From assembly GCA_976226885.1 (NCBI GenBank), contig OZ320320.1:75392001-75456000 (forward strand): a DNA stretch of 64,000 bases, read 5' to 3'. The notes beneath the pieces were generated by a model, which searched no databases, was not told the DNA's origin, and was given only the letters and a program-made list of their open reading frames with translations. Each line of letters opens with the position of its first letter. Within the stretch, counting starts at the first letter, position 1. Origin of the DNA: Iphione sp. A-MEVVRFRX5. Lineage: Eukaryota. Below, one piece after another: positions 2,622-60,879 of this stretch. A program made the position numbers and the translations under genes.

Positions 2622-2790
2622 CCTACACACTTACAAAACAGCATAATACCAAACTTCCTACCAAACAGAGCAGAGTGCAACAAACTTAACCAAACATACA
2701 CTCAAAAAACAACAACCAGCCTACACACTTACAAACCAACATAATACCAAACTTCCTACCAAACAGAGCACAGTGCAACAAACTTAACCA
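2622..2790. repeat. 98-bp tandem repeat (about 1.7 units)
   Basis: cctacacacttacaaa...taataccaaacttcctaccaaacagagca at 2622 and 2720. Confidence 0.85.
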
Positions 2791-5700: not shown

Positions 5701-6232
5701 GCGGCTGTGTCAGTGAAAGAGGGTTTTTTGTCTGTATTCTCTTCGGTCACACCGTCCCATATTGAAAACGAAATACATATGTTTGAACAGGTCTCCTCCC
5801 TCTGTCTGCCTACCTCACAGTCTGTCCTTCATTCGTCTGTCTGTCTGACTGTCTGTCTCACTATCTTTCATCTCGCCTTAGCGCTTGTCTCTTTTTCTTT
5901 TTTCCCATCTTCTGACTCCTCCTCTACCTATCCCACGTATTCTGTCTGAAAGGAGTTCTCTTTCTCACAGATGGACAGAGACTGTCCCTTTAATGTCACG
6001 TTTGTCTTTCTTTTTTTAAAGGGACTTTCCCTTTTTTTTCACGAGTCTGTCCCTTTTTTTTCACCAGACTCGGCAGGCCCCAGCCTGCCTGGCTGGCGTA
6101 TCGAGTGAAAGGTGACCTTTCTTATTAACGGGCGCCATTGTACGTAGTTTAGCTGGTTATGCAGCAGGAATTCGCTACTCCATGAGGGTTCGATGTGCCG
6201 GTTGAAAGTAGCACAGGCCGATATAGACTGCT

Positions 6233-6270
<38 letters not shown>

Positions 6271-7368: not shown

Positions 7369-7567
7369 NNNNNNNNNNNNNNNNNNNNNNNNNNNNNNNN
7401 NNNNNNNNNNNNNNNNNNNNNNNNNNNNNNNNNNNNNNNNNNNNNNNNNNNNNNNNNNNNNNNNNNNNNNNNNNNNNNNNNNNNNNNNNNNNNNNNNNNN
7501 NNNNNNNNNNNNNNNNNNNNNNNNNNNNNNNNNNNNNNNNNNNNNNNNNNNNNNNNNNNNNNNNNNN
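7369..7567. other. Assembly gap
   Basis: Run of N. Confidence 1.
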
Positions 7568-10500
7568 ACTGTAAGCTTTAAATATTGCCGTACACAAAAC
7601 CATACCTGGTGATGTACACTTATTCAACATGCTTATCATAGAAATAACGCGAGTGGAGCTATATCGGACGTACAGGGGAAACAACGACCCGCTGAGGCAT
7701 ATATTTTATATCCACGTGCGTTATATTGTCTTGCAGGGTGATAGGGAAACAGATCCACGAAATACACTCCTAGAAAGGCCTTGCCAGCCATGAACTTCTG
7801 CCTACAACAACACTTCATCATCCCCCCAGTCACCAAAAAAAAGTTGAAAATGTTATATTGAGGCCCCCAGAACGATGTTATTTGTTCGCTTTGGAGATAA
7901 ACATTTTCTATTTTGCTTCTTATCTGCGTGAACGAGCACTGGTGCACCAATACGTCTCCCAGATAAGGAAAGCATAAGGTCATAATACAATCGGAGCCGA
8001 GCCAGCCATCGACGGGCCGACCACCTCGTAATTAGCGTGCGCCAGATGACAGACATAGACGGTTGTCATGGTGACGTGGTGCCAGACAACTGACAGTCAA
8101 GGCATGTCAGTGTGTGTTTGTCTGTGTGTGTGGTTTTTTTTTATGTAGGACTGCATACCAGATGACTGATGGACAGACCATATTGGGGGCAGTCATAATC
8201 GCACATCAATGGCTAGACACACACACAGTGCGCTGATGCCGGTATCCGTGACCCTCAGCCATAATATATGACTGAGGTGGGGGTGCTTGGATGAGGTAGG
8301 GGGACTCTAGGCGCCAGGGAAAGGTGAGGGGATCCGGTAGTCAGGGCTGGTAGGTATGGTAAGGCGAGGGGGACGTTCAGGTTAGGGGATTGGTAGTCAT
8401 CATAAGACAACACTATGGTCGGACCATGTAGTTATGGTAGTCTGGAGGACCAGTAGTCATGGTGATTTCCACATGAGAGACTGACGGGAGGAATCTACGG
8501 CATTTGCCATCAGATACCTCATGACTTAGAGCAAAACTTCATCCGTTGACAGTCCTTCTGGTTTTTTTTTTAATCTGGCCACCGGTAAAATCATAGAAAT
8601 AAATGGAGGAAAAACAATCTCTGGCCAGAAGATAATAGTAGCATACAGTACTTGTAGTCAACCTTGCTGAACACGATTACAAGTTCAAAAAATAGGCTTC
8701 GGTGCAGACCTTCTTGTGCACCAAGAAACTGCAGGACGCTGTCGAAGGACCTCTTGGTGGTTGGGATGGGGTGGAGGGAGGTTTGGAATCTGGTTTTCCT
8801 GGTTCCCAGGTGCACTGATGACATCTAAGCAACCGGCAATTTCCGCTGGATACCTGAAATCACGTGATCAAATAGCTGTTTTCTGGCTTCGATACTTGCC
8901 GTCTTGGGGTTCGGGGAGGGGGGAGGCTTAAAGTTGCCAAATATCACGAGTGGATGCCGCAAATTGATTTCTAAAGCCACTAGGTGGAGCCACGCGTTAT
9001 TCACCCATAATGCACTGCTAGTAGACGCTATCCAAGATGGCCTTTGTAAAACGGTGGTGGTGATGTTGTTGCTTTACAATATAATTTATGGTCGATCGTT
9101 ATGTTCGGCTTTTGTCTGTACAGAGAAAGAAATTGTAAGAAACCCATTGAAATTACTTGCTGTACTTATTCATTTTTTTGGAGTATTACGCAAACCCTAA
9201 ACAAAAATGGGCTACTTATCAAAGCATTTATCTTTATCGACTTGTTTAGAAACATGTTCAACATGTTGCTCTTTTCACATATACTTATATCTATATATAC
9301 ATATTACATATTCGCACTCGGCCAAGCCGACCCTTTCTCCTCTCTCTGTTTGAATTGATTGTGTGTCGTTGAGAATGCGTCCACACACTGTAAAAAGGTG
9401 GGATAGGCGCACCCCCTCCTCCTCCTACTCCTCCTCCTCCTCCTAAACCCCCCCCCCCCCCCAACTAGCTGCCTTGGGTTTTCTTTTCCACTCCCTCCCC
9501 CGAGTCCACTGTCTACCCCAATTTTCCCCCACTCCTAGAGTTTTTTTTCTCATTCTACTTCATTTGCCAGTAGACGTTTCATGAGGTTCATAAACCACGG
9601 CAAGGCGCGGTTACCTGTTGTATTTTTTTTGTTCTTTTTAGTGATCTTTAAGCCGCGATACGCGTGAACCTGAAGCAGGGCGTTGAGTAATTCAGTTCGT
9701 CCTTCTGTACAATGATTTGCTGCCCAAGAGAAAGTCGCTTGATGAACAATACTGATGTAACTTTATTCGTTGTAGTTGCTTGCCGCACTTGAATGAGGCT
9801 GAGACAGCGAAAACGAGCTAGGCAAAACATGGCGTTTTCACCCCCTTGTTAATGGTGTCCCCCAACAGAGTTATTACACCCACGGTATTCCCGACTTCGT
9901 TGATAATGTTTATTGTACAAGAAAGACAGAATGCAGCTGACTCTAAAGGGCATTTTCACGATAAACGTGACAATTTTAATCATCATTATGACATTTCCTC
10001 CATTATGTAGTAATCTTTCTGTTGGTAACCTTTGGATGACATAGAATGTTTCAAATTAGGTTCCTTCCGCGGTGGTTTCAATGGGCGCGCATGCGTATTT
10101 GTACGGTTGTGTGTGTATGTGTGTGTGTGTGGATGTGTGTGAGCGTCCCCGCCAAGAGCTGCCTTCTCTGACATCGCTAGGGGGCCATGTTCTTCTCACT
10201 GTGTGGTCCACCCGACCATCTGTCTCAGCCCGCATGAAGAATCTACCGAATGTGAAGGTGTAGTGGTGATTCAATCCTCTCCACCCAGTAGAGGTTTAAT
10301 ATCCATGCATGCGTGTAGCGCGTTTCATGGCTGTACATAAGGCTGGGTTTCCATGTATGCATGTCACCATGAGGCATGTAAGCGTATTTGAAGCATGTTT
10401 TTTTCTTGGGGGGGGGGGGGTACATGAATATACACACATGTTTCAATGTATGTGTGGGCTGTGACATGTGTAACGTGTCTGCATGTTCTGTGTTATCGGA

Positions 10501-11938
10501 AGGAGACCTTCCCTTTCCACCATGAAAGTGACGTGTGTTTTCGGTGAGGTTTTTGGAGACCATCATTATGACTAGATGTGTTAAAGAAATACATGGTGAA
10601 AACACACTTCACAGCCTGTACGGAGCAGTAATTTGATTAACAAAGGATTAAGAGAAACATGCTGACAAACATGCCTACATACACACATGGAAACCCAGCC
10701 TAATGGAGTAAAAAGGTTGACACCGTGTTCTCTGTATATTGAGAAACAGAACCAGCATGGAGCCTAGTATTACCCCAGTAAATGACTATAGTTGCTGCTA
10801 AAAAAGCACACCTGAGCAGGTGTACACCGCCATGAAAATTGAGAACTTTTCGAATCAAGAACACTACATACAATACATGTTACAAAGTATCCATGTTTAC
10901 ATTGAAGCAGTCCTGCTATTACTGTATGTAAACCCCGCCCCCCCCCCCCAAAAAAAAAAAAGCCATTCTGAAACCATGCTGCCACACCCCCTGAAAACAC
11001 GCATGGAAGGATATCAAGCCTAGACATCCCGGTGACTAAACATACGCACACACAGACGGCCGGACATCCGTTTCCAGGGAGGGAAAGAGACCACAACCCA
11101 CTCTGAAAACGACCTGACCTCAGATGGTTGTTTGTTGTTGTTTTTTTTCATCTGACAACGAGATTTCTTCCATATATATTTCTAATTATATTCCACCCTC
11201 TCCCCTCGTCGTCCATTACAGTCGTTTGTGACTTTGATGGTGAGAGAAAAAAATTATTGAAGAGAGGCAGGGCTGTTGTCAGTGATGTTGAATCGTCTGT
11301 GTGTGGGTGGGTGAGTGGGTAGGAACAGCTACAGTCAGTCTTGTCCTTGTACACCAGGTGTCGCATACCCTAACTGCCATTTACTGGACACTCGTTATCG
11401 GCCTTGTTAATTATGTCCGATAAAAAAAACAGAACAGAAACTATTCACCAAGGTGTCGATTTTCTAAAAATCGTTTTCACGATTTTTTTAAGAGAGATTT
11501 TTTTTTCTCTTCATTCCGAATCGTTGTTTCTTCATTGTTGTCAGTTTACGAAGTAGACGTACGAGCGACACTTTTACATACAGTCATCCCGGTGGTGTCT
11601 TGAAGAATTCTATCCCTTCAGATGGATTGAACGGTAAGAAAAGAATATATGTGCCACGTGCCAACTCTGCAGTGTGAGAATAAAACCGCCTACAAAAAAG
11701 CGACATTTAGTACATCTCTGTAAGCTGTTCTTCATGTTTCTAACAGTGAATTCTCCGCTGATTGAGCCCCAAATGGCAGTCGAATGAGTCCACAATTATT
11801 TCAGAAAGTGACTTTTTCCCACGGATAAGCAAAGCTGATGTTGTCAATATGCGCTGTATACTGTTCAAGTATTGTGTAGTATACTTCACACCTGGGTTCT
11901 ACCTCTAGCTCATGGCTCAAGGAGTGGAGAGTCCACTG

Positions 11939-11976
<38 letters not shown>

Positions 11977-12773
11977 GTGCTGTCTCCTGTTCTACGCATG
12001 CCGATGATTTGAGAAAGTGGTATTAAATACAAATGGACGAACAGCTTGTTACTTCATACACAACAGGGAAAGCTTCCATGCCACAATGTAACGAGGCAAG
12101 CTTAGCGCTACGTACACGACGAGAAGAGCATAGATGTACCATGCTTGTCCCCCTGCCATGGAATCATGGGGGAGTCCTTGACGGAAACGAACGTCCAGGC
12201 GCCCCCTCCCCCGCCCGTTGCCGCCCGAACTCCCGACATCTGGCGGCTAATTCTGCTCCCATAGGTAGCGGGAAGTTGCTTTGAAGAAGGATTTGATAAT
12301 CAAATGGTAATTATGTTCCCTAAAGCCCCCCCCCCCCTCTCCTCCCCCTCTTCCTCCTCTCCCCGCGCCCTCCTTACAGTTAAAATAAGGTTAGTACCAT
12401 GTGATTACCTTTGACTACATTGAAGCCTGACTGTGATAACAAAAACAAAGTTGGATAGCAACAAAAAGTAGCATTCTTGTAGCGTTCATAGTAGCGGTCG
12501 CCGATGAGGGGGGGCCTTCTTAGGTCCCCCCCTTTGTTTGGGTCGAAACCACGTCGGGGGTCTCGGAAGGTCAGCAGGTCGCGAGACCTGAGTTGTTTCT
12601 ACAGCGGCCGTTAGGGGGCGACCGCAGCCGACCTGTTAAGTAGGAAGTAGAGAGGGGTGGACGAACCATGCGAGCTTTAACTGTTTTAACCCGGCGACTT
12701 GGTCTCACACACACACACATACCGAACAGGGAATGCTGGGACATGGGGGCCCAACAGCGCAGCTCCTCCTGGC

Positions 12774-12810
12774 GGCCACCAGGTGGCGCAGTAGGCGGTT
12801 TAACTTCCGG
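12774..12810 (+). promoter_or_regulatory. CTCF-like motif next to an ETS motif in a CpG-rich patch
   Basis: ggccaccaggtggcgca (12774-12790) matches the CTCF consensus. acttccgg lies at 12803-12810. Motif match only. Confidence 0.4.
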
Positions 12811-13016
12811 TCGGTTCTTGGAGCTACGTCCATAGCGTTTTTTTCATGAAATCAGTTGTCAAGGGCCATCTCTCTGTGGTTTGGCAGTGGTTCATAATGG
12901 AATTAAAAGCCAAGCTCTTGAGGAGAACGAGCCTTGTAGACTCGAGGACGGGTCCTCTTTATGGTGATATATATATATATATATAATATATAGCCATCCG
13001 CTTCGTCTGCACCTGA

Positions 13017-13059
<43 letters not shown>

Positions 13060-29949: not shown

Positions 29950-32731
29950 GTATATATCAAAGAGTGTATAATTTTCAGTAGGTAAAGAATCATTAGGGCC
30001 TGATGTCATCGGAGAAAAAGGACGGATGAGCAGTACCAAGACAGGACTGACACTGTGTGGTGGTACAAGGTTAAAAACGACACGGTGCGGTACAAGTGAA
30101 TGAGTTTTCAACCTTGGATAACCACGTTAAGTGCGGTCCTGTTGCTATTCCATGCATAAATATCTCTGATTTGATATCAGTTTAGTTATAATTTTTTTCA
30201 TTTCCCTTTAAAAATAGAATCAACGCATCTGCCATTTTGTTTGTTTACTTTCTATGGCTTCTTGTCTCATGGTACCCTGTTCCTAATATCGCCAGTGAGC
30301 ATATATGAAAACAGGGCATCAACAAATTTGAGCATGTGTGGTAAACAGAGAATTTGTGTACTTCCAGTCAGTGAGTTGATGACCTGTTTCACAAAACTCT
30401 TTTGCTTGAATATAAATGTCTTAAAGTAGCTTCAATTTGTGTCTAAAATGCTCGTGCATGCTAAATTCAATCAGTGATGTTGTCAGTGTAGTTAGGAATT
30501 GTCTTATTATATTATATTTCTCTGCTGAGAATTCACAATGACACCCGTCCCTCATTAATTATTTTGGCAGGAATGACATGAGGATGGCATCATGAATCCT
30601 TTGGTGCACAAACATAATACTGCACACCTGTGTGATACACACTACATGATTTTTAAGCCACTGGCACGTGGTATTGTGCCAAGTATATACTGCGTGAGCA
30701 TGGAATGAGTAATGGAGGTTAACATTAAAAAAAATCAATTTAGTATTTATTATTGAGCAATTTTATATAATTATATCGACATAGGGCAATCACTAAGATA
30801 AATGGATTTTGTATATAAGCAAATATAGTGTCAAGGACCAGCTGATATAGCACAACCAAAGATGATGAAGGGGCACTGACGGGTGTTATTGATCATGACT
30901 AATGAAAATAAATATTGCCTTGCTAGCCACAATTTGAATTGAATTATTACATTTACTGAATATATAATAAACATATTGTTAATTCGGATTCACTTGATGT
31001 ATGTTCCAATATGATCAACTATATATGACTAAAATTTGTAGTTATGTTGACTCAGATAGTTCTTGTCTAGGCTCCTTTCATGAGTCGGTATTAGTTGTGT
31101 CTGTATTCATTGTTTGATTCCTATGGCATGCTTTCGAAATTATAAGAATTTTTTTTTTTCAGACATTAGAGACAGACTTGACACGGTTGCACCGTCACGC
31201 ACACACTAGCCTCGTTTGTAATAGATTATTAGAATATCGGATAGGAATACTTTAAGTGATTCCAAGGGTTATAAAAATCACTTTTTGGATCAACCTAATT
31301 AAAATTACAAATGCAATGCATACATAACAGGTCCAGAGCCAGGAAGGTTTGTGGGAGGTATCGGATGATACCCCCAAGAACCCGAGAGGTTGATCTCCTG
31401 ACTGCCATCTCTATACATGTAATATACGATTTGTATATGTAAATAACTAAGATCGATGCCCATTGGCTGATAGTTCAACAACTATATGTCACCTAGCAAC
31501 ATATATTCCATGCATAGTCAGTTGCGCTGTAACGTCATTCAACTGAAAAATTCTTATGCTGATTAAAGAGATTTGTGTTACCCATCCTCTTGTCACCTGT
31601 TGTCATTACCCACCTAGATCGGTTATATATACATATATGTATATATAGGCATTATTTTATTATTACCCCCGATACCTCCATTGGTTACGGGCCTGCACAA
31701 GGGAGGGAGCAAAGCGTCTCTCGCTGGACTCACCTACCTGGTGCTGTTGCTTTACGCCTTCTGAATAAACTGAGCCTACTTGGGGCTGTGTACTGATTTC
31801 TGTTACAAATAAATTAAGATGAAGCCCAGCGAGAAGCCATATCGAGAAAATCTGCCAAGTAAATCGGTCAATGCATTAGGAAAATACACACGTGTGTGTT
31901 AATGGACATTCATTAAGGAAAAAAAATCAATCGAAAGAAAATTAGGCAAAGAGAAGAATAGATATGTCCCTGTATGTTCCTCGACGTAGTCAGCTTTTGT
32001 CCTGTTTCACCGTTGTACAAGGTGATCGTGACTAAAGGCGTTGGGCAGGGCATGCTACTGGGCTCATAGACAACTGATTGTTACTCGAAAGAATGAGTCG
32101 AGCTAAATTTCCACGCACCCGCATTCCCCATAAGTGTTTGGAGGTCGTATTTCCGTGTTGTTTGGCATGTAGACAGAGTAGTCTGGAGTCTAGAGAGCTT
32201 GCATGTATGTGAAACATATGCAGTGGTATTCAAAGGTCCAGAAAATGGAACGGCGCAAGCTTCACAGATCATTTATCTCTTTGTGGCGTAGAACAACACG
32301 AAGGAGAACAATTAGCACAGGCACGCGTAGTCACAGTATAGACAATATAGGAGCCACGAGGTTAGACTTTTTCAGCCCAATTTACATGTGTATATACAAA
32401 CGACACAAATTATACAAAATCCACCCATTTTCAGCAACATTTGCGGACAAATGGCACATCTTAAAGAAAATTCCCCCCCCCCTGTCCGGGAAGGTTAAGT
32501 ACAAATGGCACAGCTGATACAAAATAGCTAATTTTCAATACATGTACAGTATCATCTCCTCTCTAAGGTGTGGAAATTAAACCTTAAAACTAATCGGCGA
32601 AGGCCCATTCTTGAGCTGTTACGTAGTTACAGCATGGATCAATGCTTCATAATTTTCCTATGCCAGGAGTTGGCTTCTAGATCTAAATAACTGATATAAT
32701 TAAATTTTCCCAGTTTCAGCCTTATGTTTGG

Positions 32732-33455
32732 TGTAACACAGTAGTGTTAATATGGTGGACATTCATTTGGCAGACATTGGGCTTTGTGGACAATAAACTG
32801 TATATCTTGCGGACCTATGGCGGACATATATTATGTATATGTGAAGATACAATAAGTGTATGTTTCATAATTAGTGTCTTTAATGTACAATGCTAAGTGT
32901 AAGGAAGAGAGTTCCTATGTACAGTGTACAGATATAAGCTTATAACGTGGATCCTTGTCTCAGACAACAGGTGTGTCATGTTACGATGTGACGCCTCTGA
33001 TAGTCTGGATATCAACGTCCTGCACACCAGTAGACACCCATAAACCATGTAAAAGTGACAGGTTAGTCTAAACAAACGCTACATTGGAATCGGGATTTTG
33101 AGGCACTTCCAGGGAGGGTGTTGACAGTTTTCACATCCATCATTGAATGGTGCTAGGGTGGGACACGGGGTTAATGTGATTCTTGACTAGTCATGACCCA
33201 GGGCATGCACCCAGGTCGGAGGTCAGGTAAACTATGACCTAAAGTTATGAACTATTATGAACTTTGTGCCTAAGGTTGCGAACTATGACCAGAGGGGTAC
33301 CGAACTCCTAACATAGGGTTGTGACCTATCAGTATATAATGTCTTGATTTCTTCACACTTTTCGGAGAGCTCTGTGGCCACCACCTGTAAGTGTCTACTG
33401 TCCGGAATAAAAGATCAACTAACTTGGAAACCTGTGTCGTCTTGAGTGTGTTACA
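32732..33455 (+). repeat. 5' LTR (724 bp)
   Basis: TGTAACAC...GTGTTACA termini. TATA-like tatataa near 33333 and aataaa near 33406. Aligns to 42703-43903. Confidence 0.95.
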
Positions 33456-33463
33456 ACTTGATT

Positions 33464-33484
33464 TGGTGCCATGATCAGGATTCA
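33464..33484 (+). promoter_or_regulatory. Primer-binding site, tRNA-His-like
   Basis: tggtgccatgatcaggattc lies 8 nt after the LTR. It resembles the complement of the eukaryotic tRNA-His 3' end (TGGTGCCGTGACTCGGATTC) with 4 mismatches. Confidence 0.7.
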
Positions 33485-33528
33485 TCTGTTGATCGCAAAA
33501 AGAAACACTGTCCCCTATGAGTTTTATC

Positions 33529-34520
33529 ATGGACATAGCCGAGAAGGCTACCAGTGTCACCCTTTATGTCACAAGGACGCAGCCGTTAGGATGATGTTCA
33601 CAGTTCCAAGGTGCCGAAAAAAGACTTGTCTGCACTCGAACCCGAGGATGAGGGATTCTCGCCAGAACATGTCACCTTCCTCCAGAGAATCGGAGGGTGA
33701 CCATTTACCAACCAGTCGATCTCCATGTATATGGACGTGAATTGCAGCAGCTGTTAAACGAATTCACAGGAAGAATTGTGGTGGTGGAACCGATCCGTCG
33801 AGTGAACCGCGGCACAGGTACCCGATCTGGCCGTACAGCACCGCCTGCACTGCAGCCTGTATGTTTGATACTTCCGAGGAGTGCCAGAAGTACGCCGAAA
33901 ATGCTGACGCCACCATCTAAGACACCGTCTCCTACGGTGTCACCGCTTACCATCAGTTTGCCAGTCCCAGTCACAATGGCTGACAATATCTGTCCACCCA
34001 TCCCACCATCAGACGAGTGTCTGGGTAAAACCCAGGACAAGCTGTTGTCCAAGGGAAGTCTAATGGACATGGACATTGCGGATAGTCCTGTAGCAGACGT
34101 GCCCGCGATGTACAAGCCAGTGATCAACGAACCCGAGGTAGATGAAGGAGCAAGCTGACCCGCCGACGGCACAACCGAAACCACCACGCGAATCCAGCCT
34201 GTCATCCCCAGCCTTCGTTGACCACTCCGCTGACCGATTTGGCGACCACGCCTGGAACCAGCCTAGACACTATCACCGAGGCAGGGCACAAGTTAGCCAA
34301 ACTGTTGCGGACCATGGAAGCTGACTCTGCAGAAACCATCCTTGACTTCAGTGGAGGGCCCTTGGACACTGACACGCCAGTCTTGTTGTTCCCAACAGCT
34401 GGACAGTCACCAAAAGGTCTAGTGACTCTGCCTATGGACCTTGATGATTTGTTCCCAATGGGTTGGAGAGACGACCTGTATGGATACGAAACTATCTGGT
34501 GGACATTGAATGAGAAATAG
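33529..34520 (+). pseudogene. Unidentified accessory ORF (ORF0) upstream of gag, disrupted
   Basis: ATG at 33529 is in frame with ORF 33697-34158 through two TGA stops. A frame change leads to ORF 34218-34520. Pro/Ser/Thr-rich middle and acidic-aromatic C-terminus; no family recognised. Confidence 0.6.
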
Positions 34521-34787
34521 CAATCACGGTGAGTGAGTCTTCTTTACTCTCCAAATAAGCCACTTTGAGTCAGAAATTTTTCTTGCAGTGGTTAAGTGCT
34601 GTGTAGCCCAAATGGGTTGGGTAGGTTGTTGTATTTGCTTGTTTGCAATAATAGGGACCATGATTAGTCTTTGGCCGCTAATGCGATATGTCATTGATGA
34701 AAAGGTTTTGAACCAACTAATTTTGGTATTATTGCCTGGTAAGCCCTCCTTTTTGCCTTTCCCTTTTTGGTAGAATAATTAAGGGAG

Positions 34788-35575
34788 ATGGTACAGCCCG
34801 ACCCCATTGTTGTTCACTTACAGACTATTGGTGCTCTATTTGGTCTATAGACCGCCAATTCTACTGTTCCTAAATTTTCAGGATCAGCCAAAGCTTTTGA
34901 AGCTTGGATTAATGCAGTTGAACATGAATCTGCAGGACTAGATGGAGGGGATCATGAGTGAACACTTTTTAGGAAGGTCCTAACCCAACGAACAGCCGAT
35001 GGAGCTGTAGCGGATTATTTGCTAAGGTTAGCTGCTGAACATCCAGGATATACTTGGGCAGAGTACAAGCAAGAATTAACCACTAGATTTGGGGAGGTAG
35101 TAGATTGAGCACGTGCTAAAAGTATTCTCCGAAAATGTAAACAGAAGGCAGATAAGAGTGTCTATGTTTATGCTGAGTGGATATTAGACCTCATTCAGGA
35201 TGCTTACTCAAGATGCAACTGGTGGAATATTTTACTGATGGCCTTAAGTCCGACAAGATAGCATGAAAGGTGTTAAGGGAACACTCCGCAAATCTTCATG
35301 ATGCTGTTGAGTTAGCAGGTTGACAGCATGATGTGCTAAAACAATTTTCATTAAGAAACTGAGATGAAACCCCCATGTAAATAGACAAGGTGGAGGAGAA
35401 AGGAAGATTCCGAGGCAACTGTTATAGTTGTGGGAAATCGGGCCATATGAGTCGTGATTGCAGGCTTAAAAGGAAGACTGGCACGGGTATGAAAAAGAAA
35501 GCTGTTTGTTTTAAGTGTAAGAAAACAGGTCATTATAAGAACGAATGCCTAGGAGAGGACAGTGCAGATTTATAA
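34788..35575 (+). pseudogene. gag: Gag (capsid-like region plus two CCHC zinc knuckles), disrupted
   Basis: ATG at 34788 reads ...VPKFSGSAKAFEAWINAVE...KCKQKADKSVYVYAEWILDL (major-homology-like). Knuckles CYSCGKSGHMSRDC and CFKCKKTGHYKNEC. Contains stops and frameshifts. Confidence 0.9.
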
Positions 35576-38500
35576 TACCAGAGGGAAAACCTACAGTAAG
35601 GGTGTGGATTGGGAAGCAATGGTATTGTGCCTTGATCAATACAGGGATGGATGTTTCGTTAATTAGAGCTACCATTTATCATGAACTCAACAAGAGAGGG
35701 TTAGCTACTGAGCTTTCCTCAATTGAGTCCACTATTCAAGGAGTCGGAGGTGCAGAGATATGACAGTTAGGAGGAACTTTCGTTAGTTCTATTATTAATT
35801 CACAAGAATTAGTGGAGAGTTTCAGGTAGTATTGGGAATAAACCATTCTTTTATATTGGGATGGGATTGGTTGACACAATTTACCAATGAAATTAATATT
35901 AGCAGAGAATATTTAGTAATTAATGGGGCACAAGTGCCTTTGGTCAGAACTGACACGATTGCTTTGTTAGTTCAGATAACGGAGGATGTCACCCTACCAC
36001 CAATTGGCACAGTTTTCATGCATGGACGTTGTACGCTCCCGCTTCAGGAGCAATATATGGTTGTTACCATTGCCACTCAAGGAGCACCGGCTAATGAGCT
36101 GGACGTTATGATTCCTAACTGTTTGCTTCCAAGAAAAAATGTTTCCTGTGGTTAATGGCACTACACGGACCCTGACCTTTAAAAAGGACAATGTGCTTGT
36201 ACATGCCGAGGACAGTGAGATCCTGCCTTTTGCCATGGTTAGTGTCATAGCTGGTACCAAGAAAACACAACGGGATGAAAGGGTGCACTGTTATACTTTA
36301 GAAGAGTTATTAAATCAAAATTAAGATTCATTTGCCGAGTCTGATTTGCAGTTAGGTCAGACAGAATTGGTCACCATGAACATAGATACTGGTAGCACAC
36401 CACCGATTGCGCAGAAACCCTATCGCACACCCTTAGTCAAGCAAAAGGTAGTGGAGGAGAAGATTAATGAGATGCTAAAGGCTGTGGTGATAAAGCCTAG
36501 TAGAAGCCCTTGGGCATCTCCAATAGTGCTTGTAGCAAAGAAAGATGGCACTCAATGGTTCTGTGTGGACTATCATATACTTAACCATGTCACTACCAAA
36601 TTTAACTGGCCTCCACGCCACATTGATGATATTCTAGCCCAACTGGCTGGGAGTAAGTGTTTTTCGACACTAGACTTGCGAAGTGGTTACCATCAAGTTC
36701 CAATGGAGGAGGAGTCAAAGGCAAAAACTGCTTTTGCTTGTCATGCCGGTCTGTTTGAGTTTAACGTCATGCCATTTGGACTTTGTAATGCACCGAGTGT
36801 ATTTTCCGAACTCATGGCTGGAGTACCAGAAGGTGTTAATAGGACTTTTACAACCGCCTATCTGGATGATATCTTGATATGGTCTACAGCAACCCATTTG
36901 CACCACTTGCAGCTCGTCTTTGACCGACTTAGAGCAGCAGGGCTGAAGCTTAAGCACAAAAAGTGTGATTTCTTCTGCAACAGCCTCAAGTACCTAGGCC
37001 ATGTGATAACCGCTGATGGAGTTAAGCCGGACATGACCAAGGTGCAAGCGATTCGCGACTTGCCACCTCCTCAGACAGTTAAAGATATTAGGTCATTTAT
37101 TGGTATGTGCAGTTTTTATAGACGATATGTCCCTAAATTTGCAGAGATTGCTGAACCTTTGTTAGCATTGATGCAGAAACATGTGGACTTTGTGTGGAAC
37201 GAGGAGCACCAATATGCTTTTGAAGCACTTAAAACTAAGTTGATATCACCTCCAGTTTTAGTATTCACTCATTTCGATCGACCTTTCCTCTTGTACATGG
37301 ATGCCAGTGATAGCTGTATAGGTGCCATGTTGTTGCAGGAAGGCAATGATGGAGCAGAATGTCTGATACAGTATCTGTCACACCACTTGTCATCCACTCA
37401 GCAGAGGTGGCCGATTATCGAGAAAGAGGTTTATGCTATAGTGAAGGCTATTAACAAGTTCGAGCCTTTGTTATACGGCAATAAGTTTATTGTGCGCACA
37501 GACCATAAACCACTTAAGTTTTTGTTTAAAACCGAGATGAAAAATGCTAAAGTCCAATGATGGGCTATGAACTTGATATGATTGTACCATCGAATACATA
37601 AAAGGAAGCGAAAATGTAGTCACTGACGCATTAAGTCGACTTTGGGATGATGACATAAAGGGTTCATCTGATTGTAAGACGGACAAGGGTTTGTCCCCAA
37701 AAATGCGTATTGCAGACAAAAGTATGCCCAACGATTTAGCGGACACGGAAGTGCCCGCAGGTTTGTCCGGAAAATTCAGTTCCGCGGACGTGGCCGCTAT
37801 TGATAACGAGCCACTGGTCAATCCACGCACTGATGAATACCGTGATGTGATGTGCGCACAACAAAACGACCCTGCGACTGCTTCCTATGTACATGATCCT
37901 TCTTTTATTAACAGACAGGATTGCTGGTATTATATCACGGACAAGCCAGAGGCTTGGTTGCACATAGTGGTGCCAACTGGATACATCCCCGAGGTGTTGA
38001 AGCACCAACACAATTTAATGGGCCATATGGGGAGAAATAAGACCTACGATCGTATTCGCGAACAATTCTATTGGAAGCATCTATATCGTGACATAGTCAA
38101 ATATGTCACACAGTGTGTAGATTGTAACATGAGAGTTCTATGATGACAATTGTGACCGCTCCAGGAGATGGAAGAGATTACTTTTCCCTTCCAGAAGATG
38201 GCCATGGATACCTGTGGTCCCTATCCAGAGCCGTTGGCAGGTTATAATTACCTGTTGACTCTGGTTTATGTCTATTCAGGATGGCCAGAGTTCTATCCCT
38301 TGAAGGATAAGTCTGCAAGTGCAGTTTGCCTAATATATGTTGACGCAATGATACCGCAGCATGGGTGTCCGTTGGTACTGTTGTCGGACAATGGTACTGA
38401 GTTTGTCAACAGGATAGTAAAAGAAATTTGCAATGTGTATGTCATAACAATAATTACTACTAGTCCGTATCATCTGGCGTTGAACGGTAAGACTGAGCAG

Positions 38501-39857
38501 ATTCATCGCTTCTGGAATGACATCTTAGCGAAATAAGCAGAGGGAGAATGTTGATCCCAGTGGCGCTAATGGCAATACGAATGAGTACTCACAAGTCCAC
38601 CAAGTATACACCATTCTACTTGTTGAATAGTAGAGATCTTATACTACCATTGTATACTCTACTCAAGCCCTGCGTGAAGTACTATGGTGACGAACATCAC
38701 TGCTTGGCCATACAGGCTCAGCACTTAGCGATGATAGAGGTTCACCAAAATGTTGCTCAAGCCCGAGAGCACATGAAACGGAACCATGACAGTCGTGCTC
38801 AAGACATCCACTTTGAGGTAGGAGATCCGGTATCCTTGCATAATGCAACAAGACAATATAAGACGGATGTCCGATGGAAACTGTATTACCACATTATTCA
38901 GCGCATAACCCCTGTTAATTCCTTGGTGAGGGATCAAGTAACTGGCACCACCGAAAAGGTACATAGCCATCGCTTGCGATTGGCTAACCTTGATTGGGTA
39001 TTGCCTCTGCAAGAAAATGCGTGACAGCCAAGACAGCATACTGCTTGGGCCGCAGGTCCTGAACCTCCTAACGAGGGAGGGGATGGAGGGGAACTGCCTA
39101 TAGATGATGACGGTTCCGGGTTCTCGTCAGAGGAAGAAATTCCTTTGGCCCAGTTATTTGGACGAGAACAGGCTGATGAGGTTCTATTGTTACAGCCAGA
39201 TGTTGGTTCAGGCAAGGAGCCAAATGCCAACAGGGTGGAAGTCAACCCACCTGGGGATGCAATTGTTGCACCCGAACCCAGGGCACAAGAGCCGATTGAG
39301 GTAGAGGATATGCCTGTGGCCAGGGCTGCCTCTTCTCCAATACCATTGGCAGACGATACTGCTCCCATGGTGCCAGACGACACAGCAGGGGCCAAGGGAC
39401 GAGGTCCCATAGACCCGAGCCAACATGATGTCAGAGCCAAAGGAGGCATGGATACATTGGACCGAGCCATGGGAGGTGCCGTTCCCAAAGCTCAGGCACA
39501 AGAGTTGCGAACTAAGGCTTTGCGCAAAGCCAACGATGAGCTAAGTGACAGGGCTAAGAGGTATTTACGTAGACAGGAAAAGAGAGCTAAAGATGAACCT
39601 CTAGAGATGTTAGGAGAACAACCTAAATGAGTTAGGGAAGTTAAAAGAATTGCGAGTCAAATTACAAGTTCAATCCAGGGACTAATCAAAGTAGTAAGGG
39701 ACAATAAAAAGTGTTAAGAGGAGTAGTAGATGTCTTACAAATGATAACCGAACTAGAAATTGAGTATAGCAGTTTGAGTTCCTCAAATTCATTGTACACA
39801 GCATCAGATGAGTCAAGTTTGGTTGACGGACCTAGGTCTCTCGATTATTGCAGATAA
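35545..39857 (+). pseudogene. pol: Pol: aspartic protease, reverse transcriptase, RNase H, integrase and long C-terminal tail, disrupted
   Basis: Protease LINTGMDVSLI (DTG changed to NTG). RT LDLRSGYHQV and YLDDILIW. RNase H YMDASDSCIGAMLLQ. Integrase HHCC (HNLMGHMG...CVDC) and DDE core (AMDTCGP, LSDNGTEF, NGKTEQ). Many TGA stops and frameshifts. Confidence 0.95.
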
Positions 39858-41919
39858 TCATACTGAGATATGGCCAAATGCGGTAATTATCCTGTTTGTC
39901 CGCTGGGCACTGGTTGCGGGAGGACCATTTGACAACATCATCTTCCATAAACGGACTGAGGTTCTGGCAGTGTTGTCTAGTTGGGAGATTGACCTGGTAT
40001 CCAGTTTTGGCATTTACAAGCAAGCATTGGATCACTTGACTCTCGACTTGGTCAAACTACGAGAAAAGTTAGATGCTGCCGCTGTGATTCCAATGTTACA
40101 GAAAGAATGACCGACTGTCCATGCATGAGAAGTAGCCGCTACTCTTTCCAACCATACACGAGTACTGTGGCAACAAATTTTTCGCACACATGAGAGAGTA
40201 GATCAGATCGTGAGATTGGGTACCGTGGTTGAACTAAGCCTGTGTGAATCAACTCACCTCACCTTAAATGAGGCGCGACCGCCATTGTTGCAGGCATTAT
40301 CGTGGTCATACTAGCAGCTACTGTGGCAGGAGCTATGTTTGCTGAATTAGAAATGTTGAAGGGACGTGTGAATGTGCTGCATTGGGCCCAAAGAGAAATG
40401 GTGACTTTAATTGAAGACACTGTGGCTATTCTCAATCAGACTCGACAGGAGATACAGGCCAACCATGTTTTGATAAATCAGATAATTGCCATTATACAGA
40501 GAATTGAAACTGATTTGTGGGCAGGCATTAGGTATAATGGACATGAAATATCAATGGCATATGCATTTATTGATGCTGAGTGAATGATTGGAACTTTTGA
40601 AGAACAGCTGTATGTAGTCGAAGATGCTATTGTTCGGTTAGAGATTAAAGTGGCTCACCTCATGGCTGGGAGGTTGACACCGGAGGTACTGCCCATAAGT
40701 GAATTAAAGTTGGTACTGGCACATATCCAGCACAACTTGCCGATGCACATGTCATTACCATTTCTGTTGGAAAATGTTTGGGAGAACTACACCACTGTTC
40801 AGACAACTACTGTGTTGATGGGAAAATCACTGGTGGTGACTCTGAAAGTACTGCTAGTGGACCCCTGCGCTAATTTGACCCTGTATGAGGTCATTAACAT
40901 TCCTGTACCCGCATGAGATTTGCCTTATATCGTTAGGTATCACTTGGAGTTCCCTTACTTTGGTATAACTGCCGATGGCAGAAGGTATGCTCAAGTGACA
41001 GGAGAAGATCTTGTCAGGTGCGAGGACATTCATGCAAAATGTTGTGTCGTAACATCCCCACTGTATGAAATTAACCAACATCAGTATTGTGTCATGGCTT
41101 TGTTCCGAGCTGAGTCTGAAATAGTTGATACCTTATGTCAACGTGAGGCTGTAGTCGATGAACATCTTCCCATTGCCCATTATGTAGAGCAGGGGAGATA
41201 GGTAGTGTCCACACGAGAAGATGTTAGCTTTCGGGTTGATTGCCAGAACAGGACACAGCACACGGCACATGCATGTTTTGTTTTTTCTGTAATTACACTG
41301 GGTAATGGATGTAGGGCTAACAGTGATCACCTATCTTTACCCACTTATTATCATAAGCGAACTGAGTATGAAGTTTAAAAAGGCGCCTTTAGAGATGCCC
41401 CCAGAGTTAGATATCCATGAACCTGTGATTGTTACCAACCATTCTATTCATCTGAGTCCTCTGCGTAACCTGACCAATGACGACTTAGGACGACTCATTA
41501 GCTGACTGAAATCTCTGAAGGAACAGATTGATGAACAAGGTTGGGGTACTGGGCCTAGTTGGATGACAATTGTGGTTATTGCTATGGGAATTCTGCTTAT
41601 TGTGCTTGCATGTGCATGCTGTGCATGTAAGAAGGGATGGTGTGGTAAATCCTCTGTACCTGCAACTACTGTAAATTTACCAATGACCTTGTCATGGATG
41701 TGGGAAGGGTCTGCGTCTGGCAATGCTAGCACAGCGAGTGTTCCTTCACCACTCCCCATACTTTCAAGAGGAACCTTGAGGGTTAGGACAGACAAAAAGG
41801 GAAGTAGAATTGATGTTATTGACCCTATTGAACCAGTAGATAACCTTGAAGTTAGGTCGACCCTGTTACAACCGAGTCTCAATGCTATATTGCCTACGGC
41901 CTTGGGACGTGTGTATTAA
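39808..41919 (+). pseudogene. env: Env-like class I membrane fusion glycoprotein (baculovirus F / errantivirus env-like), disrupted
   Basis: Signal-like WPNAVIILFVRWALVAG. HLK* at 40260-40271 (probably RLKR before decay) followed by hydrophobic GATAIVAGIIVVILAATVAGAMF. Heptad-like HR1, a GRLTPEVLPISELKLVL motif, a Cys-rich ectodomain, HR2 (LRNLTNDDLGRLIS*LKSLKEQIDEQ), a TM segment TIVVIAMGILLIVLA, a CACCAC cluster and a ~95 aa tail. Confidence 0.8.
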
Positions 41920-42754
41920 GACTGGTGGCAGGGGAGTGATGAATTCTTGCTATAGTCTAGAAAGGCATGCTTTGTTGTGTTTGATTTGTTATTTACCGTA
42001 TGGTGTGTATTATGATGATGTCATAATGGTGCTGATTCTATCTGCAGACATTTATGTATTACATTATCCACTAGGAATATGAATATGATATCCAATTTTT
42101 TAAGCTTTCCAAGATGTACATATCGTTCATCACATGAAAACACATGGCATCTTTGTTGTTTGTCCTGTAGTGTCAACTTTGTCATTCCTTTAATGGGAGG
42201 GATGTGTCCTTAAACTGCTTGGTGTGTGTTGAAAGTTTTAGGAGCATCTTCCCACCAAAGGGTTATGCCCTCTAGCATAACCTTCTGGCACCAATTGTGT
42301 AGCACTAATTGAACTCTCTTCAGCTTTCATAAAAACAAAGTGCCTTTCTGAAGATAATTGGCTGTAAGTGGGACCACTATGCCACCTCAGTGAACCAATT
42401 GGAGAGTACAGTTACAAGTTTCGATTGAATTGAACAGGTTCATGGTTGGGGTCTGGCCTGACCATCTGGGTGATGGGTAGTTCGGGCATACAACCCATGA
42501 AATGTGGTGGTATCCTTTAGGGTCAGGGAAACCATGGATACTGTACTAGACTCCTGAGGAAAATTGTCCCTTCGTGGACCGGGTTGCTCCGGGCCCACTG
42601 TGAAGGTGTCTCTCATGGTCAAGCAGAGAGTCGGAACTCGTGATTAGGGTTCCGATAGTTTTGGCATCCTTGGAGTGAGTTGGCTGCTGGGACAACCCCA
42701 GGCAATAAACTGTATATCTTGCAGACCTATAGCGGATATATATTATGTATATGT

Positions 42755-43103
42755 TGAGGGTGGGGAGTTAGCTCAGTGGTAGAGCACTGGTCCACTGACT
42801 GAGAGGTCGCAGGTTCAATCCCGGGCCTGGGACTCCTGATCAGGACCAGACAGATTTACTGTAGCCCCAACCCAGAGTGGTCCACAACTTGTAAAAAGGC
42901 CGTGGGTGTATAGGATTCTGTCCCATATGCACAAAAAGACCCCAGAAACCTATTCGAAATAAGAGTAAGGGGCAACCCCGGGTATTCTGGTCTCTCAATT
43001 CTCAATAATAGATGGTAGTATGCTACCCCAGGAGGATATGGAAGATCCCTGTCGTATGATAGGTGAATATATTCCTGGTAAAAGATACAATGAAATGAAA
43101 TGA
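42755..43103 (+). mobile_element. tRNA-derived SINE (MetaSINE-like core) inserted in the 3' LTR
   Basis: A box tagctcagtggt, B box ggttcaatccc, (TGAAA)n tail, and ATATGT duplication (42749-42754, 43104-43109). Absent from the 5' LTR. The central segment resembles the Meta domain as I recall it. Confidence 0.85.
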
Positions 43104-43212
43104 AATATGTGAAGATACAATAAGTGTACGTTTTGTAATTAGTGTCTTTAATGTACAATGGTAAGCGTAAGGAAGAGAGTTCCTATGTACAGTGGACAGA
43201 TATAAGCTTATA

Positions 43213-43390
43213 CAGTGGAGTCTTAATTTGCGACCACATCAATTTCCGACCATTCTTGCTATTACGACCACCTGATGTGGGAACCAAAGTCTTGATTCTA
43301 TTAGAGTAGAGTCTCAATTTCCGACCAAACTTGTTATTATGACAATTTTGGGTCGGACCTGGCCACTGGTCGGAAATCAAGACTGCACTG
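43213..43390. mobile_element. Tc1/mariner-like MITE in the 3' LTR
   Basis: TIRs cagtggagtc / gactgcactg with TA duplication. Absent from the 5' LTR. A homologous copy lies at 45855-46033. Confidence 0.9.
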
Positions 43391-44311
43391 TAATGTGGAT
43401 CCTTGTCTCAGACAACAGGTGTGTCATGTTATGATATGGCACCTCTGATAGTCTGGACATCAATGTCTCGCACACCAATAGACACCCATAAACCATATAA
43501 AAGTGACAGATTAGTCTAAACAAACGCTACATTGGAATTGGGATTTCAAGGCACTTCCAGGAAGGGTGTTGACAGTTTTCACATCCATCATTGAAGGGTG
43601 CTAGGGTGGGATACGGGGTTAATGTGATTCTTGACCGGTCGTGACCCAGGGCATGTACCCAGGTCAGAGGTCAGATAAACTATGACCTAAGGTTACGAAC
43701 TATTATGAATTTTGTGCCTAAGGTTGCGAATTATGACCAGAGGGGTACGAACTCCTGACATAGGGTCATGACCTATCAGTATATAATGTCTCGATTTCTT
43801 CACACTTTTCGGAGAGCTCTGTGGCTACCACCTGTAGGTGTCTACTGTCCAGAATAAAAGATCAACTAACTTGGAAACCTGTGTCATTTTGAGTTGTGTT
43901 ACATTGGCATTTCCTAGAAATACCAGAAATTTTCATTGGCAAACGTTACGGGATGTGCCCGCAGCCTTCAGTTGTCAAATTTAGGACATTCAAAAAGAAA
44001 TTTCCCTGATTTGCTTGTGAGACTACATGCCAAACGTGTTGTGACCTCCAGCCTCGATGATTGTCTCTATTGTTTACGATGTCTTACATAATATGCCCGC
44101 CGAGTGAATCGTTTGCGATGAGCATCATCACACCTGACGTCAAGTGTAACAGGTTGCCGGTGAATAGGCCGGACGTCTCTCTCCTGCTGTGTGACCTGAA
44201 TCCCTTTCAAAACCTGCAAACTATGCCACGTACATTCATTCATTCAGCAAATAACTGTAACTCTGAGTGTAAAACGATTAAAAATACGAGTGGAAAGATC
44301 AGATAGAATTA

Positions 44312-44602: not shown

Positions 44603-45854
44603 TTAGCTATAAAGACAGGAAGACACCACTTGGTTCATAGCTTCGAGGCTTCTAATGGCGATGGAAAAGTTGTGATGACTGGCCTAACATTGAGCGTAGC
44701 CAATATTTGTTTTTCGCAGTTTTCCGCACCTGTTGCTTACGCGTAGGCCACGTGAGGCATAAATTAAGGCATCCGAGTGCTGTGGCTTGAAAGCACGGTA
44801 CGACCCACCACATCTGTACAGGCCATTTTAAAAGGATGTTTGCTTCGACAGAACGAGTTTTTTTGTATAATTTTTATCACGAAGATCGCCAACCCAAAGA
44901 GGAGGGCCATATAAAAAGCCCACAGACTGAAAAAATTTTCCATTTTCCTTTGGTAAACCAGGACAAACATACCTATTTATGCTCCTTGGTAACAGTGATT
45001 TCCACGTTCATCGAATGCTCCCTGCCCGTTCTCCGCCGAATTAGTTATGTTTAATTCAATGTTTGAATAATTTGAGTTAATCTATTTATTTGAATCTTTA
45101 TCTTAAGTTGTATCTTACTCGGTGTGGCCGATGTCAGTTTGATATTCTAAGCGATTGGGATAACATTATTCTCGGACTAAGAAAACGGCATTGTTCTGTA
45201 TTCGGCTCGAGTGGAGACGGATTCATTTGGCGGATGCTGCCATTCATGTCAGACCTGAACTTTGGTCGGTTGTGAATTCATGAGTGATTCTGGTCGACCA
45301 ATTGCCATCGTCAAATGGTTGCTCCTAAAACAGAGCATCCGTGTTTCTTGTGTCTGTCTGTCTGCCTGTCTGTCTCCTGGTTACCTTTTCAGTCCACTAG
45401 TAGCCTTTATTGCTCAGTAAAATGGTCTGCCTAAACATTTTTCTTGTATTTGTAGCAGTTCAGCTTTTGTCTGAGTAACCTTAGGAGCATATTTCTGAAT
45501 GCTGACGCTCACAGTGCTGATTTACCCATCACATCTCAAGGCTGACGGTACGGGCTTCCATCTTGGACTGTAACGGACAATGTTAGACCAATGAAGAGGT
45601 CCATTATTCTATATGTTTTTAAAGTAGGTAATGTGCCCCCCCCCCAAAAAAAAAAAAATCCTTTAATTGTTAATGCCAACACGGATTTTGTTAATGGAAA
45701 ACGGTGTCATCTCATCCTGAAAGGGCACAGCACTTGTGTACGGTGAAAGCGGTAGTCATATGTACGTCACATCAGATAATACGGATCGGTTGCAGGGACC
45801 GTTAATTCACAATGACAAGTTATCAAGGTGAATATGCTCCTTCATCGATATATA

Positions 45855-46033
45855 CAGTGGAGACTCTATTTACGACCACCCCCTGGGAGCAAGCTGAACT
45901 GGTCGTAATGGTGAATTTGGTCGTAAATAGATTATTATTAAGTATAGAAATCCAAACTTTTGTACTATGCTGTACTGGTCGTAATAACAGGAATGGTCGG
46001 AAATTGATGTGGTCGCAAATTGTGACTCCACTG
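45855..46033. mobile_element. Tc1/mariner-like MITE, inverted copy related to 43213-43390
   Basis: cagtggagactc...gactccactg flanked by TA. Its right end is the reverse complement of the left end of the LTR-inserted copy. Confidence 0.85.
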
Positions 46034-47117
46034 TATAGAGCGAAGGGCACTACTCCTGTATCAACCTCTTTTCGGTCTCCCCATTTTGGAAGCGTACCCA
46101 GAAATACTGCGTCGGTTTGGACGATTCATCTCACCAGCCTAAGGTAGCCACACTAAGCCCGTGTCGCCTTTATTACCAGACCACGTAAATTATGCAAAAT
46201 TGTTGCTGTGGGAAGCATTGCGCCCATTAATAATTAGTTGGCAACTCTGGAATGTATTAATACAATCGACCAGCTTCCTCTCTGGAGCAGATTAACAATA
46301 AGGTTATGTGATAAGAATTCAGTACTAAATATATTGCTTACCCCAAGTAGGTAATTAGAGACATAGATTTTCTATATAGAGTCAGATTTATGCTACGTTA
46401 ATCAAGACCAATCATTTGCATATTGTAACACTAGCCTGATAGAAAATATGTGTCAGCATCTTATTTTACCAATATGAAATAAAAATCCACACAAACATCT
46501 GGTTTAACACCAAGTACACAACCTCGGGGTGTATGGGTGTCCGTTTATTCAATTCTCTGGTCCTTCTTATATGCAATCCATGCCCCATTGGTTTTTGCAA
46601 CAATGCCAAGGTATTTTGCAATCACAGCTATGCAAGTCAGACTAGAAACCATATCCACAGTCTGGAATACAGGAGCATAAACTGGAGTACCAGACCTCGA
46701 AGCACCAAATCTACCTTGGTATCTAGAGTATCCTACGTCCCCGTCTATCACAATATGATATCCTTGCTGCGTGATATTGCACGAATTTTAAGTGGTGCCC
46801 AACTTTGTTTTTATGAATAAAGAAAAACTCTATTCCCACCATCAGACGTAGGTGACTAAGTACACAGTAATGTTGTTAAGTGTGTGTTCAGTGGATGAGG
46901 TCTCTGATAATCAAGTGATATCAGGTGTATCATCCAGACCCATAAAAAGCGCAGGCTGATACTAAGGTGTTTCTCCTAGGGCCTATTCTACATACTCTCA
47001 TATAGTGTGTAGGTAGGTGTAACGGACCTGGCTATACATTTCTCTATACTCCTCCTTCTCCCCTCACTCCCAAACTCCAAAATGTCAAATAAATACAAAA
47101 AAATATATAAAAATACA

Positions 47118-60511: not shown

Positions 60512-60879
60512 TGATAGGTGTGGGAGATTAAGCCACGAGGGCCGAGGGCTGGGACACAGTCCCAACCTGAGGCCCAAGTGGCTTAATGTCCCCTCCTATC
60601 ATGAAAAAAAGTAGTTAAATGAGGTTCTGATATGGCTCGCTGCTGAGATACCAGCCAGCTGTCTTAAACCAGGGACTAATCCCTAGGGAAAAAGTCATCC
60701 CAACCTACATAATTGTCTTCTCATTGGCTAGGCTAACATACAGGTCTACTTTATCCAATGAGAGCACAGTTATGTAGGTTGGGACAGCTTTTTCCCCTAG
60801 GGATTAGTCCTTGGTTTAAGAGAGGTCGCTGGGACACTGAACATATAGGAGTGTCACTGTTAGCCATATTAGAACCATT
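60512..60879. mobile_element. Foldback/palindromic non-autonomous element
   Basis: Hairpin 60512-60601, long inverted arms 60662-60727 / 60755-60821, and outer arms 60618-60638 / 60861-60879. Confidence 0.7.

Follow-up and report, generated by a model that had tools for sequence, protein, structure and literature searches.

A decayed Ty3/Gypsy retroelement on the plus strand of a contig from Iphione sp. A-MEVVRFRX5 carries a long reading frame, here called ORF0, between its primer-binding site (PBS) and gag. Judging from its comparison with a natural relative, ORF0 is very probably a true accessory gene belonging to this Gypsy lineage, which was intact at insertion and has decayed along with the rest of the element. 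The window, that is, the whole stretch of DNA that was analysed, covers 64,000 nucleotides (positions 75,392,001 to 75,456,000 of the forward strand of contig OZ320320.1, assembly GCA_976226885.1), and all coordinates given here count from its first letter. The layout of the copy is LTR-PBS-ORF0-gag-pol-env-LTR, where LTR stands for long terminal repeat. A preliminary description of this stretch had proposed an accessory gene in an ORF0-gag-pol-env arrangement, and our results uphold it: the relative, a protein designated P0003, is open across both pieces of the frame, the two ends of the protein are conserved and its linker has diverged, and the relative of Gag is a stand-alone protein.

ORF0 extends from 33517 to 34520 and comprises about 333 codons, interrupted by three stops and one frameshift. 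Its start had been placed at ATG 33529. The actual start is ATG 33517, four codons earlier, which aligns with the first Met of P0003; ATG 33529 has no Met counterpart in that protein, whose sole Mets are residues 1 and 312. The count of two stops also needed correction, since there are three (Table 1), and the similarity to P0003 persists beyond the third one up to ~34215. Other parts of the preliminary description stood. The frame change is present and was placed between ~34197 and 34218, the distance to gag, given as about 270 bp, measures 267 nt from the ORF0 stop (34518-34520) to the gag ATG at 34788, and both peptides quoted from ORF0, as well as its Pro/Ser/Thr-rich middle, are found in the sequence.

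The three stops fall within 334 codons, against 14.4 expected from the regional dinucleotide make-up (Poisson P 3e-4); this expectation was taken from the decayed copy's own composition, so the significance is somewhat overstated. The other two plus-strand frames contain 12 and 6 stops in 233 codons along the first piece of ORF0, and 7 and 6 stops in 99 codons along the second. Elsewhere in the element, stops amount to 3/144 in gag, 1/466 in the reverse transcriptase-RNase H region (RT-RH), 3/319 in integrase (IN) and 3/368 in env. Thus, the damage to ORF0 is no greater than that to gag, pol or env.

Searching with the first piece of ORF0, we found one homolog among 280 candidates: P0003, a protein of 326 aa from a 1,322-nt ENA contig. 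It is the sole match among 1.84 billion representatives, searched with no length limit, and the sole member of its own cluster; no second relative of ORF0 was found in that set. P0003 is a single open frame that spans both pieces of ORF0 (E 4e-90). Its residues 1-240 are 53% identical to the translation of 33517-34215 and its residues 235-326 are 61% identical to that of 34197-34478, with 70% identity in a 73-residue core of the second piece. The protein ends ~13 codons before the ORF0 stop of the window, and this short end is probably the end of its contig.

Conservation is not uniform along the protein. Identical codons between ORF0 and P0003 number 30/87 (34%) in the linker, against 98/142 in the N-terminal part and 51/73 in the C-terminal part. 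Both ends are thus about 70% identical, close to the 107/138 (78%) between the N-terminal part of Gag and its relative. Both ends differ from the linker (Fisher, P 4e-7 and 9e-6), and the comparison of the N-terminal part with Gag gave P 0.14. Single-step differences were more conservative than neutral in the N-terminal part (P 0.0008), the C-terminal part (P 0.04) and the Gag control (P 0.018), with P 0.73 in the linker. The neutral model was the decay spectrum of the two LTRs. Across 670 aligned sites these share 92.8% identity and differ by 4 transversions and 44 transitions, of which 17 fall at CpG (Kimura two-parameter distance 0.077), so each LTR side has changed by ~4% since insertion. 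Break codons were excluded from the counts of conservative changes. In these comparisons P0003 stands beside a Gag relative that may come from a different family.

That relative of Gag, P0008, has 271 aa and aligns with the window at 76% and 70% in two frames; Retrotrans_gag and zf-CCHC are both matched on it. Such a stand-alone protein shows that ORF0 did not break off from gag. An ORF0-Gag fusion is disfavoured as well: the stop of ORF0 precedes the candidate splice donor at 34529, the gag ATG of this copy is preceded, four codons upstream, by an in-frame stop, the two Gag relatives, each of 271 aa, start at the same Met, and a search without length limit returned no longer form. Regarding the DNA of these relatives, none of the pattern matches could be confirmed in metagenome contigs (0/228 for P0003 and 0/112 for P0008), in viral contigs (0/6 for RT, 0/1 for P0008 and 0/4 for P0003, and 0 for a pattern joining the LTR end to the PBS) or in prokaryote genomes (0/110 and 0/139).

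The composition of the ORF0 protein divides it into a basic, Arg-rich N-terminal part, a fast-evolving Pro/Thr/Ser linker and an acidic C-terminal part. Residues 1-125 of P0003 include 17 Arg and 2 Lys beside 6 acidic residues, Pro/Ser/Thr make up 48% of residues 126-250, and among the last 76 residues 19 are acidic and 3 basic. Since the highest 19-residue hydropathy is 1.16, the product has no membrane span. The motif LxxLL occurs in the N-terminal part (P0003 residues 76-80) and again in the C-terminal part (265-269), and LxxLF lies in the acidic end (314-318); all are common to ORF0 and P0003. Two LxxLL motifs were reached in 0.6% of 20,000 shuffles, and there are none in the Gag relative or in RT. 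In general, co-regulators are bound through LxxLL and acidic-hydrophobic motifs, while stretches rich in Arg serve in RNA binding or nuclear import. AlphaFold, run on the single sequence of P0003, gave a mean pLDDT of 38.9, with modest helices only at 2-12, 76-82 and 252-271, the last being the best. The globular N-terminus proposed in the preliminary description is unconfirmed, these models being uninformative in that region (pLDDT ~30-37). The product would be a soluble, largely disordered protein of ~330 aa.

The only ATGs between 33340 and 33520 are at 33471, within the PBS, and at 33517. With only the PBS ATG before its own, ORF0 forms the first long cistron, and gag follows 1.3 kb further on. 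In the T-rich (37%) spacer between them, a splice-acceptor-like AG at 34773 lies 14 nt upstream of the gag ATG and ranks first of the 642 sense-strand AGs between 33360 and 42200, with a score of 23 (mean 11.4, standard deviation 2.7, next best 20). On the sense strand, the donor-like sequence GTRAGT occurs at 33387, in the R region of the LTR and 19 nt before AATAAA, at 34529 and at 36653.

According to these observations, we propose that ORF0 would be the first long cistron of an RNA initiated in the LTR, and we lean towards a Gag(-Pol) made from spliced RNA through the acceptor at 34773. Joining the donor at 33387 to this acceptor would give a gag mRNA without PBS and ORF0, while an alternative donor at 34529 would keep ORF0 whole and bring the gag AUG to 22 nt past the ORF0 stop. 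The basic part of the protein might then bind RNA or DNA, and its acidic, LxxLL-bearing part might recruit a host factor; the effect could be transactivation or the export of unspliced RNA, as with the CERV protein of Cer1. Only tentatively do we assign ORF0 the role of a nuclear regulator of the element's own expression. Taken as a whole, the reading that joins a regulator in the first cistron to a spliced gag stands in even balance with its alternatives. A bolder version, for which we see rather little chance, would make this non-insect env-bearing Gypsy lineage an inverted complex retrovirus, with a regulator as the first cistron of the genomic RNA, gag-pol exclusively from spliced RNA, and an R-region donor that also controls the choice of poly(A) site.

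Several points weigh against the reading that we favour. On the side of the gene, fixing the base change at codon position 1 leaves a weak conservative excess (z 1.36, with z 1.54 for the Gag control), and 8 of 24 position-1 differences in the N-terminal part are transversions, so the null derived from the LTRs fits imperfectly. P0003 is a single relative, known from its protein alone, with neither genomic context nor proof of gag-pol-env surroundings. The LxxLL test was made post hoc, and amphipathic helices favour this motif. Besides, the protein has no family or fold match in Pfam (0 families at E up to 1 for P0001, P0003 and P0005, with no PMD or Tr28), in the PDB sequence search or in ESM Atlas (TM <=0.45 for the whole protein and for residues 240-326). 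On the side of splicing, one antisense AG nearly equals the acceptor, with a score of 22 against 23 (1/466 antisense AGs at >=22). Donor-like GTRAGT sites show no enrichment, with 3 present where 5.7 would be expected. The one at 34529 is suggestive by its position only, and the R-region site differs between the two LTRs. Finally, the ORF0 AUG has a weak context and the gag AUG a strong one, which also fits leaky scanning.

One could argue that ORF0 is real and that ribosomes reach gag on unspliced RNA, whether through leaky scanning, through reinitiation or through internal entry, and that the pyrimidine tract serves translation or packaging instead of splicing. Unspliced RNA is the usual template for gag in retroelements (PMC10309623), and the AUG contexts just mentioned suit leaky scanning. 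So does the scarcity of certain residues in P0003, with 2 Met and 2 Cys plus Trp in 326 residues, by which AUGs are capped at 2 in each of two frames. However, the third frame of P0003 could carry up to 19 AUGs, 27 ATGs lie between the ORF0 ATG at 33517 and that of gag in this copy (these two not counted), a low content of Met, Cys and Trp is common in disordered proteins too, and the order of branch-like site, pyrimidine tract and AG fits an acceptor. We regard translation of gag from unspliced RNA as unlikely, although of the alternatives it survives best.

Slightly less probable is a real ORF0 with a structural or cytoplasmic role, as a matrix-like protein, as an adaptor from the capsid to the membrane or Env, or as an antagonist of host defence. 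With its capsid and nucleocapsid, the 271-aa Gag relative is too short to hold a matrix domain as well, although an env-like gene is present in the element, and short helical motifs within a disordered chain would suit an adaptor. The lack of a membrane span and the arguments given above against an ORF0-Gag fusion speak against such a role.

We also considered that the segment might be a conserved RNA leader for packaging or dimerisation, or might code in another frame, with ORF0 open merely through G+C richness. At 33700-34200 the G+C content indeed reaches 0.54, compared with 0.41-0.45 for gag and the greater part of pol, and along the first piece G+C has a flat profile across codon positions. 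A shifted plus-strand frame from ATG 33566, encoding an acidic peptide, looked attractive at first, as all position-1 differences in 33517-33700 were silent in it (12/12). With break codons removed, the count (10/10 in 33517-33697) is close to the 9.0 expected, and over the whole N-terminal part it is 18/23 against 17.7; this frame also contains 12 stops in 233 codons and had no homolog among 10 candidates, so it was rejected. The in-register antisense frame was rejected too (16/23 silent against 18.0 expected), and two antisense ORFs showed no Pfam match. At this copy's composition, an open frame of 326 codons would arise by chance with a probability of ~6e-7, and 800 nt separate the PBS from the other conserved block, which stands past the diverged linker. 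Accordingly, a leader or other-frame coding is improbable. Least credible of all, to the point that we set it aside, is a copy-specific insertion of unrelated DNA to which alone P0003 would be related: the G+C content is above that of the rest of the element and P0003 comes without genomic context, but ORF0 begins 41 nt past the PBS 12-mer and neither of its ends shows a repeat or duplication, its damage matches that of the other genes, and its distance from P0003 is similar to that between Gag and its relative.

The element that encloses ORF0 is flanked by a 4-bp target duplication (32728-32731 and 43904-43907), and the same 8-base inverted motif is found at the ends of both LTRs (Table 1). 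TG...CA LTRs, target duplication, PBS and polypurine tract, together with the domain order of pol and an RT closest to that of Ty3, identify it as a Ty3/Gypsy LTR retroelement. For the PBS, compared with the reference in supplementary file 1 of PMC13524379, the next-best position of the 12-mer has 5 mismatches. Within pol, Pfam matched RVP_2 (weakly, E 0.066), RVT_1, RT_RNaseH, Integrase_H2C2 and rve, and the best PDB match of the RT is the Ty3 RT (E 7e-80). After integrase, the frame runs on for ~200 codons (39025-39630), with an acidic, Pro-rich tail and a basic, helix-like end and without a Pfam match; it is possibly a targeting or nuclear-import domain.

Table 1. Features of the ORF0-bearing retroelement, in window coordinates (PR, protease)
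Feature	Position	Strand	Details
5' LTR	32732..33455	+	724 bp; TG...CA ends; 8-bp terminal inverted repeat
Sites within 5' LTR	33333; 33387; 33406		TATA-like; donor-like GTAAGT; AATAAA, respectively
Primer-binding site, tRNA-His type	33464..33475	+	His_GUG 12-mer, 2 mismatches
ORF0, first piece	33517..34218	+	basic N-terminal part, LxxLL, Pro/Thr/Ser linker; in-frame stops 33592, 33649, 34156
ORF0, second piece, after the frameshift	34197..34520	+	LxxLL in an amphipathic helix; acidic end with LxxLF; stop 34518-34520
Splice-donor-like GTGAGT	34529..34534	+	8 nt 3' of the ORF0 stop
Splice-acceptor-like site	34717..34773	+	branch-like CTAAT at 34717, pyrimidine tract 23/24, AG ending at 34773
gag, broken	34788..35569	+	capsid and two CCHC knuckles
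pol, broken, PR-RT-RH-IN	35580..39630	+	ends approximate; long acidic then basic tail after integrase
env-like gene, broken	39809..41919	+	start approximate; possibly F-type
Polypurine tract, then 3' LTR	42192-42202, then to 43903	+	LTR interrupted by three insertions

The env-like gene encodes a hydrophobic peptide followed by a predicted helix of 86 residues, and towards its C-terminus a hydrophobic stretch followed by Cys and Lys. It gave zero Pfam matches and a weak match (E 0.18) to the 'fusion protein' of PDB entry 9w4c. Its model (pLDDT 43) showed no fold match at E <=0.001 among viral structures, a comparison that carries no meaning here. Position, long helix and C-terminal hydrophobic stretch are suggestive of an F-type env. 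By eye, two acceptor-like AGs can be seen just 5' of and inside the start of this gene (39790-39860); they are outside the 12 top-scoring sites.

As for the insertions in the 3' LTR, ~500 nt with TGTCC...GGACA ends (42203-42702) directly follow the polypurine tract in place of the first ~55 nt of the LTR, and look like another element's solo LTR, the insertion of which was accompanied by a small deletion. At 42755-43104 lies a SINE-like insertion with a tRNA-like head, which we take to bear A- and B-box-like motifs, and a (TGAAA)n tail; neither ARAGORN nor Rfam called it, each returning 0 hits over the whole window. The third, at 43213-43392, is a MITE-like element with CAGTG...CACTG ends and TA flanks, related to another with such ends and flanks at 45854-46037 (62 nt at 94%). 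Farther out, ~230 nt at 31575-31810 that start with TGTTAC, end with TGTTACA and contain AATAAA may be a short solo LTR, and nested inverted repeats at 60651-60832 form a MITE-like near-palindrome of ~180 nt. Positions 1-17000 are strand-skewed and rich in microsatellites (CT, GT and CCA-type runs), with many frames of 100-236 codons. Outside the genes of the element, the 33 other long frames had nothing above the Pfam cut-off.

A conserved pre-gag gene of 330 codons would bring the genes of an env-bearing Gypsy lineage to four, its product falling outside any known family, and would make the layout closer to that of a complex retrovirus than to that of a standard retrotransposon. It also poses the question of how a gag that follows a long upstream cistron is translated. 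The significance of the finding is bounded by a dead copy and a single relative. ORFs ahead of gag are known already, and we found no description of an ORF0-gag-pol-env animal Gypsy element in the literature searched, mostly open-access, so that ORF0 ahead of gag-pol-env is apparently undescribed; a Repbase or Dfam entry may already show the ORF. The preliminary description had given gag as the first ORF of canonical Gypsy elements; as a rule for all of them this is too strong, as both the small ORFs (sORFs) of 412/mdg1 and the extra ORFs of plant Tat elements lie upstream of gag.

Chary and Hayashi (PMC13524379) described 'ancient' env-bearing Ty3/gypsy errantiviruses with a His_GUG PBS and an F-type env. 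The present element shares with them the PR-RT-RH-IN pol, an env-like gene 3' of pol and the His-type PBS (2 mismatches). Among the 17 His_GUG rows that we examined in that report, 16 have an F-type env (10 Mollusca, 4 Annelida and 2 Thecostraca) and the remaining one is a hymenopteran of the HSV type. The distances from PBS to 3' LTR computed for this group are 7.5-10.9 kb, compared with 8.7 kb in the present element, so some of these elements have room for an additional gene. Marks of the 'ancient' clade given there are its place in an RT tree and an RNase H plus 'mini' domain in the bridge region. The survey covers 1,512 env-bearing Gypsy elements in the gag-pol-env order and two reordered forms, and its authors did not search for other ORF arrangements. 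Word searches of its main text (additional, extra, accessory and upstream ORFs) returned no pre-gag gene, and in this respect the errantiviruses, as reported there, differ from the present element with its ORF0. Since such a layout was not sought, the 1,512 elements are open to direct screening, and, if our reading is true, similar genes may sit unannotated in other catalogued errantiviruses.

Among animal Gypsy elements, the Drosophila 412/mdg1 lineage also has accessory ORFs between the 5' LTR and gag, sORF1 (~110 aa) and sORF2 (~70 aa) (PMC11952523, bioRxiv 10.1101/2020.09.24.311225). The product of sORF1 is made and is subnuclear, whereas that of sORF2, which has a membrane span and a polybasic patch, acts as a membrane fusogen; the elements are env-less and no splicing was seen (PMC11952523). 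Unlike these two short ORFs in elements without env, the present element has one ORF of ~333 codons, without a membrane span, together with an env-like gene; the distinction is one of description. The fusogen and the nuclear protein of 412/mdg1, along with the Rev-like factor CERV, show the weight that accessory genes can have in Gypsy elements. Further upstream ORFs are found in plant Tat/Ogre elements, some of them pre-gag and with mostly unassigned function (PMC4408406, PMC7264820), in a planarian Burro-like element (PMC6431247) and, as an ORF0 ahead of gag, in rice Retrosat2 (PMC3485330). The available portions of PMC2774666 and PMC8220671 yielded no further facts for comparison. The products of the Tat/Ogre and Burro-like ORFs carry PMD, Tr28 or MATH domains, in contrast to the present ORF0, which has no Pfam match.

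In foamy viruses, pol comes from a spliced RNA, and the genome encodes a transactivator, Tas. Their major splice donor lies in the R region, upstream of the poly(A) signal (PMC3694450), and here, likewise, the donor-like site at 33387 stands in the R region just before AATAAA at 33406. Unlike in the foamy viruses, which are Retroviridae, the R-region donor of the present element is a candidate that differs between the LTRs. The closest functional model is CERV, from the Cer1 element of C. elegans, which is an accessory protein from the 5' part of a Gypsy-type element, the likeness being again one of description. CERV is a nuclear protein of 517 aa, made from a five-exon mRNA and needed for the export of unspliced RNA; it shares reading frame and sequence with Gag, is restricted to its lineage and diverges fast (PMC10309623). 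ORF0, in contrast to this spliced, Gag-sharing protein, is a separate frame with its own stop, beside a stand-alone Gag. In its composition and motifs, it is compatible with a CERV- or Rev-like export factor.
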